In this document: in pieces, positions 55,240 to 58,477 of the stretch
How positions within the stretch are numbered: position 1 is the first letter of the stretch
Layout: every line of letters starts with the position of its first letter
Assembly: GCA_965204285.1 (NCBI GenBank)
Contig: OZ241980.1
Location: 1,733,811 to 1,797,810, forward strand
Origin: Candidatus Poribacteria bacterium
GTDB taxonomy: Bacteria; Poribacteria; WGA-4E; WGA-3G
Length of the DNA: 64,000 nt
Direction of reading: 5' to 3'
Made by a program: the position numbers and the translations under genes
Notes under the pieces: generated by a model
Databases searched by the model: none
What the model was told of the DNA's origin: nothing
The model's input: the letters and a program-made list of their open reading frames with translations, nothing else

Positions 55240-55998
55240 ATGAAATTTTTTAGGCTACTTTTAGCAAGCAGTTTCTGTCTGTTATGCCTCTTTGGCATCA
55301 GTATCCCCACAGAAGCTTCCACAATAACAATTGAGGAACTTGATAGTAGTTGGCGTCCGAGAGCTGATGTTGACTTTCCGAGGGAAGATGTCTCTGCTTC
55401 CGTGACAATAACTCTTAATGGTGTAGACTTTCCATCAGATCCAAATGGGCAGCAGCCGTACGTCACCGTATCTCTCTTGGAAGTTACTAACTGGAACGGC
55501 ATCTGTGGCAACGCGGCAGATACAAATTACAATCTCACAGATCCAGATCTTGTCTTGGAACGAACTGCCTCACATAATAGCGACTGGACAAGGAACTTTG
55601 ATCTCAATGGGAATTACGACGGCACCCTCACATACACACTTAACAACAACGAGTCGCAGATATCTGTCAAAGTGTCTTGTAAAGATTATGGGGCGTATGG
55701 CAAAATCACGGCAACTTTGTATGACTATGATGGAGCTGGCAGTTATAAGTCTACAACCAGTAACACCGTGCCTATTCCACGTGACGGTAACAACAACAAA
55801 ATCGCGGATATATGGGAAGACAAGTCAGATGTCAATTTGACCGCTGCAGAAAAAAGAGATGTTACGTTAGATGTGGAGACCGGTCCCGGAAATAACCCTA
55901 ATCATGGTGACGGTCTCTCTATCTTCGCCGAATATAGAGGCTTTAAGCTTTATGATGGCTTCAATAGCAGATGGCAATACACCAGTCCTAGTGGATAG
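55240..55998 (+). pseudogene. 5' portion of a secreted zinc-metalloprotease gene interrupted by IS630 (signal peptide + beta-rich N-domain)
   Basis: Start MKFFRLLLASS with an AAAGGAG RBS. The last three codons and the stop are supplied by the IS630 left inverted repeat. Confidence 0.65.
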
Positions 55999-56004
55999 TC
56001 CAGT

Positions 56005-56691
56005 CTAAAATTGTGGGTATAAGTGTTTTAGTCGGATGCGCGCATCATCCGTTGTGAAGTGCCAGTCCACTTGCTTCGCTTCACGATTACGCCTTGCCTC
56101 CCAGGCTTTTGTCTCTCTCCGTAGTGTTTCTATGTCAGGGATACGCCGACACAAACATTGGCGTGTGAGCACACTCAGTTCTATCTCCGCTATATTCAAC
56201 CAACTTCCATGCTTAGGTGTATAGACTATTTCCAAACGCGAACACAATCTCTCTGCTGCCTTCGCTCCAAATGTTTTGGACAACGACGAAAAGTTATGCG
56301 TATTCAGGTTATCACAGACTAAAATCACACGCTTTGCTAACGGATACACCTCATCCAATAGCACCCGGACTTCCTCCGCCCAATCCGTTGCGGTCCGACG
56401 CTCCCGAACAGACACACGCCGCCACCCCGCAAGTGCCGCTGTGAAAATGAAAAGTTGAGCCGTGCCATTGCGTTTATATTCATTGTCTACACGCTTGACC
56501 TGCCCCGGTTTAGCGGGATGGGGATCACGGGTATCACCTCTCAACGTTACAGATTGTTCATCCATGTTCACAACAGGAACATCCGGATCCAAAGGTTGCT
56601 GATAGAGATTTAGCACCGCCTCCATTGCCTCAACAAACTCGGCAGCTTCTTCAGGAGGGATCACCCATTGCTCCACAAGATGCGGTTTCAA
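56005..56691 (-). CDS. IS630-family transposase, DDE domain part (orfB)
   Basis: DDE-domain pattern (VLVCDNLNTH...W.N..E). Confidence 0.7.
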   Translation of the reverse strand: MKPHLVEQWVIPPEEAAEFVEAMEAVLNLYQQPLDPDVPVVNMDEQSVTLRGDTRDPHPAKPGQVKRVDNEYKRNGTAQLFIFTAALAGWRRVSVRERRTATDWAEEVRVLLDEVYPLAKRVILVCDNLNTHNFSSLSKTFGAKAAERLCSRLEIVYTPKHGSWLNIAEIELSVLTRQCLCRRIPDIETLRRETKAWEARRNREAKQVDWHFTTDDARIRLKHLYPQF

Positions 56692-57131
56692 AGCGTTTTT
56701 TTGAGTGTCTGACGCACCGTTTCTGGTGAAATACTCTCTACAATCTCAAGTCTAACCAGTTCTGACGCAAGAAGCCGTAGTGTCCATTTGCCAGCACCTT
56801 CTGGAGGCTCCCCACAACTCAGGGCTATCAAGCGCGCCTCAGCTGCACCATCAAGCTTGCAAGGCGTGGGAGGATGTTCGCGCTTAGCACGATACAAGGC
56901 ACGAGAAAAACCACCTTCCGTAAAGCGCTTGCGCACATTAGCTACTGTCTGGTGATTACACTCATACGCATCAGCTATTTTTGTATCGCTCCAACCGGGG
57001 CCCTTCACATCCGATTTCAGCAAAATATAAGCATTCCTTATCTTATACGCCTCGTTTTTACCAGTGTGGACACAGTCTTCCAACTCTTGACGCTCCGTAT
57101 CGCTCAGTTGGACAACATATTTTTTATTCAC
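56688..57131 (-). CDS. IS630-family transposase, HTH part (orfA)
   Basis: Helix-turn-helix N-domain. It ends at an A7 run just before orfB in the -1 frame. Confidence 0.7.
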   Translation of the reverse strand: MNKKYVVQLSDTERQELEDCVHTGKNEAYKIRNAYILLKSDVKGPGWSDTKIADAYECNHQTVANVRKRFTEGGFSRALYRAKREHPPTPCKLDGAAEARLIALSCGEPPEGAGKWTLRLLASELVRLEIVESISPETVRQTLKKTL

Positions 57132-57259
57132 AGCAGTGTTCCTCCTAAGTAGTATTATATACTATAAGGGAAACACTTTCGTCTGTCAAGATCGCAAAAA
57201 ATCAAAAAATAATCATATAAGTTTAGACTGGACTATCCACTAGAGAGAAGGACATTTTT

Positions 57260-58477
57260 GTGACATGGGAATGGGATATGGAAGCTTACAAGGCAGGGAA
57301 CGCCGGTTCTATGCCCTCACCGATGCAAGTCAATCTTGTTTCTGATAGTTATGTTCGTAACGCTCACGAAAGTGGGACTCAAGACACACACCGGTGGGCA
57401 AACTTTTGCAATGAAGGGATACCCGGACACGAGAAGGTCTACGCAATACTCGTTAGAACCTATAAGGGTACGGATGCCCCTCGAAATACATTTGGGTTCG
57501 CAATAACAGAAGATCTTGGTGCGAATGATTTAGAAGGCACCCCTCGGCCACCGTCGCAATGGTCTCAAGCAGTTATCATTCTTGATAACATTAATGCACA
57601 ATGGAATAGGCGAGCCGATAGAGAAACCGTCATCAACAACGTGATCGCCCACGAAATCGCGCACTGTGTCAACCTCGCGCACTGTCCCGTAGATCCGTGT
57701 CCGGTAGCAGGTGAGAACGGTAATTTTTGCTACATGGACAGAGGGCGGACCCGCACGTCTTCAAGTACCGTTTTCGGTAACTCGCACAATCCGTATTACG
57801 ACGCGCATTTACCAAAAGGTAATAACCAACCGGTACATGAATCTCAGGAAGCAGGCGACACCGATGATTCTCCAGTTGGTGGCAATGGCAGCACGGGTAA
57901 TAGTAACACGAGTAGTAGTAGCACGAACACGGGTAGTAGTTCTTATGGGTGTGATTACAATGCGGAATATGACTATTGCACAGATACCGGCACATGCACC
58001 ACACGATCAGGTCAGTTCGGGATTGGTATGTGTGGCCATCGGTGGTGTTGTTGCGCACCTGATACAACTACCCAAACGCCAGCGCCATCAACGCCGTCAA
58101 CGTCTTCAACACCCTCAACGTCTGTTACGAGCACGAACACGGGTTATAGTAGTTCTTATGGGTGTGATTACAACGCAGAATATGACTATTGCACAGACAC
58201 AGGCTGGTGCACGACGCGCTCAGGTGAGTTTGGGATTGGTATGTGCGGTCATCGGTGGTGTTGTTGCGCACCAGCTGATACAACGACACAAACGCCACCC
58301 TCAACGTCTGTTACGAGCACGAACACGGGTTATAGTAGTTCTTATGGGTGTGATTACAACGCAGAATATGACTATTGCACAGACACAGGCTGGTGCACGA
58401 CGCGCTCAGGTGAGTTTGGGATCGGTATGTGCGGTCATCGATGGTGCTGCTGCGCGCAGAATAGTCCATATCAATAG
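57260..58477 (+). pseudogene. 3' portion of the IS630-interrupted gene: HExxH zinc-metalloprotease domain + three tandem Cys-rich ~40-aa modules
   Basis: AHEIAHCVNLAHC zincin motif. Three copies of YGCDYNAEYDYCTDTG(W/T)CTTRSGEFGIGMCGHRWCCCA are separated by T/S/P linkers. The segment is in frame with 55240-55990 once the IS is removed. Confidence 0.65.

Follow-up and report, generated by a model that had tools for sequence, protein, structure and literature searches.

What does the stretch of Candidatus Poribacteria DNA considered here (64,000 nucleotides, hereafter the window) hold at positions 55240-58477: two genes with a mobile element between them, or one gene that the element has cut in two? 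We propose that an insertion sequence (IS) of the IS630 family landed at a CTAG in a single conserved gene, duplicated the TA, truncated the encoded protein and knocked the gene out. We put the probability of this explanation at roughly 0.92. The gene would encode a metzincin-like protein, and a preliminary description of the locus, made by reading the sequence alone, had already called it a recent knockout of a secreted metalloprotease. The evidence that follows comes from re-reading the locus, from searches for homologues and related elements, and from comparison of syntenic loci.

The 1250-bp element at 55991-57240 is an IS630-family insertion sequence, oriented on the minus strand and inserted at the TA of a CTAG. 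Direct reading finds GTGGATAGTCCAGTCTAAA at 55991-56009 on the plus strand, the transposase-distal end, and again at 57222-57240 on the minus strand, the transposase-proximal end. These inverted repeats are identical at 19/19 positions, and no further match turns up in the 64-kb window even when 3 mismatches are allowed (0 expected by chance). Both ends abut a TA: the left copy of the duplicated target is at 55989-55990 and the right copy at 57241-57242. With the element and one TA taken out, the target in the window reads CCT AGA and contains CTAG with the duplicated TA at its center; the orthologues have CCC AGA at the same codon pair. The element thus has the features of its family, namely terminal inverted repeats (19 bp, perfect) around a body of ~1.1-1.4 kb and insertion into TA with a 2-bp TA duplication, CTAG being preferred. 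A length of 1.25 kb is within the usual size range of IS630-family elements. Base composition does not distinguish the IS from the surrounding DNA. The family, the boundaries and the TA at both junctions are therefore as first described, and the inverted repeats are indeed perfect; their length, previously given as 19-22 bp, is 19 bp, and 21 bp with the TA included.

In silico excision of the 1250-bp IS together with either TA yields the same open reading frame (ORF) of 1986 nt, with no internal stop. The restored ORF encodes 661 aa from the ATG at 55240, or 667 aa from the ATG at 55222. The former start has AGGAG 8 nt upstream, and the homologues likewise begin with MKFFRLLLAS; the earlier estimate of ~667 aa corresponds to the ATG at 55222. 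At the junction, the restored protein reads ...RWQYTSP-REKDIFVTWEWDMEAYK, and the comparison with homologues shows ...RWQYTSP|REKDIF... The 5′ part of the disrupted gene, at 55240-55990 on the plus strand, comprises codons 1-250 and the first base of codon 251. Its product begins in the manner of a signal peptide and contains a beta-rich domain as well as the acidic motifs DxNxNKIAD and GDGLSxFAEYRGF. The 3′ part, at 57243-58477 on the same strand, supplies the rest of codon 251 and continues to the stop, encoding a metzincin-like domain and three Cys-rich repeats; it begins at 57243 rather than at 57244, where it had previously been placed. In its present state the 5′ ORF extends to 55998 and ends in ...TSP-SG-stop, that is, 250 native residues followed by SG. 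Its stop codon, the TAG at 55996-55998 (AGT GGA TAG), lies within the inverted repeat of the IS. The in-frame junction and the origin of this stop both stand as they had been predicted.

Homologues show that the two parts belong to one polypeptide. A word-based search with the reconstructed protein returned 31 homologues, the best of which are full-length single proteins of 557-711 aa with up to 65% identity. Their alignment is gap-free through the junction (...RSRWQYTSPREKDIFVSW... in P0002 and ...NSRWQDTSPREKDIFVSW... in P0001), and PREKD is conserved. In the alignment, 56 columns are invariant; they lie in both halves, and among them are P250, adjacent to the junction, and H387, E388, and H391. 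In an exhaustive profile search, we obtained 3251 representative proteins at E≤0.001, each representing a cluster at 50% identity (~3,250 clusters), and 672 at E≤1e-30. Many of the representatives listed by this search span profile positions ~1-400 in one stretch, which takes in both sides of the insertion point.

The genomic context tells the same story. In the window, in L001, and in L012, the gene order is amidohydrolase, then a tetratricopeptide repeat (TPR) protein of ~500 aa, the split gene, a ~155-aa protein, and rpsL, rpsG, fusA, and tuf; L011 has the three-gene core of this cassette. The shared context bears out the orthology of the split gene, and the orthologue is intact in L001, L012, and L011. 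When the window is compared with L001 by blastn, the alignment ends at 55991 and restarts at 57242, on adjacent L001 positions. The preliminary description had suggested that a search for uninterrupted orthologues would decide whether there had been a single gene, and this search came out in favor of one gene.

What would the insertion do? The IS would have transposed into the TA of CTAG at codons 250/251 of this conserved Candidatus Poribacteria gene, duplicating the TA. The protein would be truncated after residue 250, with two IS-encoded residues and then the stop in the inverted repeat, and the catalytic half would have neither a start close to a promoter nor a signal peptide. The 3′ part now lies behind 1.25 kb of antisense IS and lacks a signal peptide; its mechanical ORF starts from a GTG at 57260. 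An outward promoter-like match at 57127-57155 is weak (9/12), and such matches are no commoner in the region than in shuffled sequence. We did not accept it as evidence that the 3′ half is expressed. From this arrangement, we infer that the insertion allele is null for the protease function. Directly past the stop of the gene, at 58504-58538 on the plus strand, lies a strong intrinsic-terminator-like hairpin of 11 pairs (58504-58528) with a T-rich tail, so that the insertion would be unlikely to exert polar effects on the str operon or the downstream gene. For annotation, the two flanking ORFs should be recorded as one IS-disrupted pseudogene. Insertional inactivation by a textbook IS630-family element is ordinary biology; the element itself is new and unnamed.

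The transposase is encoded by two ORFs on the minus strand, as had been noticed from the sequence. orfA (56688-57131, 147 aa) starts with GTG preceded by AGGAGG and corresponds to the helix-turn-helix DNA-binding part. It matches Pfam HTH_32 at 2.9e-16 and also HTH_23; against the NCBIfam IS630 model, it scores 69 bits over positions 6-107. orfB (56005-56691, 228 aa) lies in the -1 frame relative to orfA and corresponds to the DDE catalytic part. It matches Pfam DDE_3 at 2.6e-21 and positions 111-299 of NCBIfam NF033545 with 131.2 bits, the cut-off of this IS630 equivalog model being 100 bits. Since orfA and orfB match successive parts of the IS630 model, together they make up one colinear IS630 transposase. 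This is a homologous DDE transposase of the family, and the nearest database relatives that have a name are called IS630 family transposase. A promoter-like site for the transposase, a consensus match only, is found at 57161-57189 on the minus strand (TTGACA, a 17-nt spacer, and TATAGT; 11/12).

orfA and orfB overlap at a run of seven A residues, A7, at 56696-56702 on the minus strand (T7 on the plus strand), which we propose as the site of a -1 shift. The overlap lies just past this run, in the context CTC AAA AAA ACG CTT TGA. If one A is re-read, the product is a 375-aa fusion, ...ETVRQTLKKNALKPHLVEQWVIPPEE..., that contains ...TLKKNALKPHL.... The junction of this -1 fusion, ...ETVRQTLKKNALKPHLV..., is identical to that of P0152 (MDE0314981.1), a 370-aa NCBI product of the L008 copy. 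The gene span of P0152 is 1112 nt, which equals 3n-1, and it is not directly translatable into the product; P0152 is therefore a frameshift-joined coding sequence.

The two frames could also be read as damage. A 1-nt deletion from A8 to A7 would then have broken a transposase that was once a single ORF, leaving a dead copy of the IS and an insertion that is an immobile fossil. More distant relatives of 375-378 aa, at ≤63% identity, are in fact single ORFs with a colinear TLKKNxLKP in one frame, and their KKN codons imply a run that is one A longer; homopolymer indels are also common, both as mutations and as sequencing errors. However, the copies in L007, L008, L009, and L010, which have 75-84% nucleotide identity to the window element and so differ from it by 16-25%, have an A7 or A8 run with the -1 overlap in the equivalent place, and neither ORF is interrupted in any of them. 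The run is A7 in the window element and A8 in L007. Among the best hits listed, the close relatives (76-100% identity) are all orfB-sized except two intermediate fragments of 272 and 294 aa, and one relative is annotated by NCBI as a frameshift-joined product. The perfect inverted repeats and the near-consensus promoter likewise speak for an element in working order. Given that the -1 overlap is conserved across relatives, we rejected the frameshift as simple damage, and we regard a dead IS copy as unlikely. orfB is 100% identical to P0037, from a 5.08-Mb contig, and the named members of the 41-member cluster of P0037 are Candidatus Poribacteria.

The evidence thus supports a conserved programmed -1 arrangement of the two transposase ORFs rather than damage; the single-ORF relatives count on this side too, being colinear with the fusion. 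Frameshifting is used in the IS630 family, and transcriptional realignment has been described in a Roseiflexus IS630 (Atkins et al. 2016, PMC5009743). With a conserved -1 overlap at a homopolymer and a colinear fusion, the window element falls into the frameshift-dependent IS630 subgroup, for which a shift on an A-run is a known mode. The transposase would be made from the two overlapping frames by -1 ribosomal frameshifting or by transcriptional slippage on the A7 run. As in the Roseiflexus type, an A-run is the place where orfB overlaps orfA in the -1 frame, and fusion restores a colinear transposase; the differences are the length of the run (A7 in the window, A8 in L007) and that the shift here may be ribosomal or transcriptional. 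Because the arrangement is conserved in relatives and NCBI annotates one of them as a joined product, the IS looks functional and is presumably active. Its intact ends and ORFs, and the independent insertions that relatives have made in other genomes, point indirectly to an ability to transpose. The earlier view of a still-intact IS is thereby refined, and an annotation should merge the two transposase ORFs into a single frameshift-joined product.

The element can also be compared with IS630 of Shigella sonnei and its family within IS630/Tc1/mariner. Both have a DDE transposase with an N-terminal helix-turn-helix and short terminal inverted repeats, and both target the TA of CTAG and duplicate these 2 bp; in a published table, IS630 has CTAG as its target and a duplication of 2 bp (PMC2577343 Table 1, citing Tenzen & Ohtsubo 1991). 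The window element differs in its inverted repeat sequence and in its transposase, which is only distantly related and lies in two frames. Its best named relatives are other environmental entries called IS630 family transposase. The spacing from the putative second D to the E is 41 residues by our reading of the motif, in contrast to the classical DD35E (PMC11544213).

If the gene was knocked out by this IS, did it happen recently? The inverted repeats are identical, the TA copies are intact, and the reading frames of the IS and of the two gene halves are all open. The window protein retains all 56 of the family-invariant residues. A crude relative-rate comparison used 10 outgroup homologues: the window protein is on average 37.1% identical to them over the N half and 30.8% over the C half, and its three closest intact relatives reach 35.7-37.9% and 29.5-31.4%. 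Since the split gene shows neither decay nor excess divergence, the insertion is probably recent. The age is read indirectly, because the closest intact orthologue is only ~65% identical to the window protein, and on these indirect grounds the recent knockout of the preliminary description is supported.

Several observations weigh against our explanation. The distance to the closest intact orthologue is one of them. Another is that neither the 24-mer of the empty site nor the 21-mer of the IS junction (TA plus inverted repeat) has a match in the metagenome contig collection, which leaves no same-species pair from before and after the insertion. Exact-sequence look-ups with the N fragment, the downstream 158-aa ORF, orfA, rpsG, and P0037 gave no match either. 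Only one copy of the IS is seen, within 64 kb. The insertion is known from an assembly, in which it may be fixed, a minority allele, or an assembly choice. Two further points concern the protein: no Pfam or NCBIfam protease model scores over its cut-off for the window protein or its close homologues, and a Foldseek search against the PDB gave no significant match (best E = 0.09), with ADAM22 and serralysin ranked first.

Another rival is an assembly artefact or a minority allele, with most cells carrying an intact gene and a repeat copy threaded into the contig at this place. The sequence seems to derive from the genome of an uncultivated member of the Poribacteria, all matches to the inverted repeat are in Poribacteria metagenome-assembled genomes (MAGs), IS elements are a classic source of assembly ambiguity, and several of the relatives sit at contig ends. 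Yet both junctions carry the exact IS630 signature, with the TA duplication at CTAG and a full inverted repeat at each end, and a mis-join would not create it. We consider an artefact or a minority allele very unlikely. We would give a smaller chance still to a gene that was already a decaying pseudogene when the IS arrived, or had long been dead, in which case function would have been lost for some reason other than the IS. Nothing direct favors this; the catalytic half is ~55% identical to the closest homologues, as against ~79% for the N half, but the C halves of the intact P0002 and P0003 are also of low identity (49.5%, as against 96% for their N halves). The 1986 nt contain no stop or frameshift, the 56/56 family-invariant residues are kept, and divergence from the outgroups equals that of intact orthologues, which led us to reject a long-dead pseudogene. 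Finally, two naturally separate genes with a coincidental in-frame junction, for which the prior chance of an in-frame join is ~1 in 3, are excluded by the full-length homologues (both the best-scoring ones and many profile representatives carry the two halves in one polypeptide), by the conserved junction sequence, by the syntenic loci that hold one gene, and by the blastn comparison with L001, and their probability is practically nil. A single gene split by an IS630 insertion thus remains our explanation.

The nature of the disrupted protein is the weakest part of the preliminary description. A secreted metalloprotease is plausible; the support consists of a motif and of two matches, a weak one by profile and one at the level of the fold, and no curated family is over threshold. 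At ~661 aa, the protein would start with a signal-peptide-like N-terminus, followed by a beta-rich domain that bears acidic motifs resembling calcium sites, a metzincin-like domain with HExxHxxxxxH and a C-x-M turn, and three disulfide-rich repeats at the C-terminus. The zinc-binding motif HEIAHCVNLAH is encoded at 57650-57682 on the plus strand; H387, E388, and H391 are invariant and H397, at the third ligand position, is nearly so, with H in at least 90% of the homologues and D in the two closest. This agrees with the extended metzincin motif HExxHxxGxxH/D, except that the Gly position is Asn. A nearly invariant C413-x-M415 aligns with the C-I-M turn of adamalysins in the profile alignment; in the structural model, this segment is of low confidence, with a predicted local distance difference test score (pLDDT) of <50 for model residues 147-161. 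The family profile matches snake-venom adamalysins at E = 2e-4 in an alignment that covers exactly HExxHxxxxxH and the C-I-M Met-turn, and it matches archaemetzincins more weakly. Distant relatives give sub-threshold matches to Reprolysin_3/4/5 and one marginal match to Peptidase_M57, 22.1 bits against a cut-off of 21.

The full-length AlphaFold model is poor (pLDDT 49) and was left out of the fold search; the model of the catalytic region alone was usable. AlphaFold2 places beta strands at residues 52-179 with pLDDT ~80. Compared with the adamalysin/reprolysin metzincins (MEROPS M12B: BmooMP-I, 6x5x; atrolysin C; ADAMs), the window protein reaches the threshold of no Pfam reprolysin model and has Asn in place of the conserved Gly of HExxHxxGxxH, and its N-terminal beta-rich domain and C-terminal 6-Cys repeats are without counterpart in curated families. 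A metzincin-like metalloprotease is nevertheless the best functional reading, and we consider it a likely one, short of demonstrated family membership.

The protein is probably secreted. Its N-terminus, MKFFR-LLLASSFCLLCLFGISI-PTEA|S, has an n/h/c layout that is conserved in homologues, it contains 30 cysteines, 21 of them in the repeats, and relatives are fused to dockerin, FN3, LRR, and Big_1 modules; we infer secretion from these three features. The three tandem Cys-rich repeats, of ~60-70 aa each, are encoded at 57920-58474 on the plus strand and follow the pattern STNTG..YGCDYNAEYDYCTDTGxCTTRSGxFGIGMCGHRWCCCAP. Each is a 6-Cys unit in which the middle Cys of the CCC triplet varies among homologues, and the repeat has no relative in Pfam or among PDB sequences. 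Units 2 and 3, at 58110-58455 in the window, form a 186-bp tandem duplication with 97% DNA identity, pointing to a recent duplication or gene conversion. Homologues have one to three Cys-rich units, or unrelated Cys/His-rich tails.

The family is also a mosaic. P0002 and P0003 share 96% identity in the N half and 49.5% in the catalytic half, and P0001 and P0002 share 75% and 80%. These values suggest recombination or module swapping between the halves, near the IS site of the window. The conserved core, made up of the beta domain, the acidic motifs, and the HExxH domain, occurs in ~3,250 clusters at 50% identity, and Pfam has no separate model for it. This is a metzincin-like, probably secreted family that curated databases do not describe, and it could matter for the interaction of these bacteria with their surroundings or host.

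The IS has relatives in other genomes. The 19-bp inverted repeat is present in six contigs of the species-representative genome collection, 6/6 of which are Candidatus Poribacteria MAGs, and several of the matches are at contig ends. Where IS ends can be read in the related loci, 10/10 are flanked by TA, mostly as cTA|...|TAg. In L007 (CBDBFU010000012.1, a Candidatus Poribacteria MAG), a 75%-identical relative at 3294-4540 splits a gene for a 434-aa P-loop ATPase-like protein at CTAG, and removing it with one TA restores the ORF. This second split gene indicates that the IS lineage has been repeatedly mutagenic in Poribacteria. With independent gene-splitting insertions in at least two genomes, this IS630 lineage would be currently mutagenic in the phylum.

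A broader interpretation of the locus is possible, and we offer it as speculation that is more likely wrong than right. The split gene may belong to a large, uncurated extracellular metzincin-like family, whose Poribacteria branch would carry an undescribed 6-Cys knottin-like repeat and sit in a conserved cassette beside the str operon. The knockout by an active, frameshift-regulated IS630 might then capture a sponge-associated lineage while IS elements are still causing a host-interaction factor to be lost or switched.

Some features of the neighborhood deserve mention. The three-gene cassette occupies 53729-59176 in the window, 3035-8636 in L001, 3416-7414 in L012, and 3451-7681 in L011, and it is directly upstream of rpsL-rpsG-fusA-tuf in 3/4 genomes. 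The metzincin-like gene starts only 10-25 nt past the TPR stop, and the ~155-aa protein has a faint match to type II secretion system protein C. In L012, an unrelated transposase (Pfam DDE_Tnp_1) lies at 702-1907 between the amidohydrolase and TPR genes, a few kilobases upstream in the same syntenic neighborhood. Mobile elements may land repeatedly in this syntenic region.

The window also contains a palindromic repeat, similar to repetitive extragenic palindromic (REP) sequences (CTGTAGGAGGGAACTCCGATTCCCGAC ... GTCGCGATTCGGAGATCGCTCCTACAG), in at least 7 places, and it occurs in other Poribacteria contigs as well. The copies in the window are at 5178-5204, 7302-7423, 8558-8584, 30111-30183, 31288-31384 (three tandem half-sites), 37972-38040, and 58571-58637; elsewhere, we found it at 3397-3540 in L003 and at 5895-6068 in L005. 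The REP-like copy past the disrupted gene forms a long hairpin, and the folding z-score of the region is -6.2.

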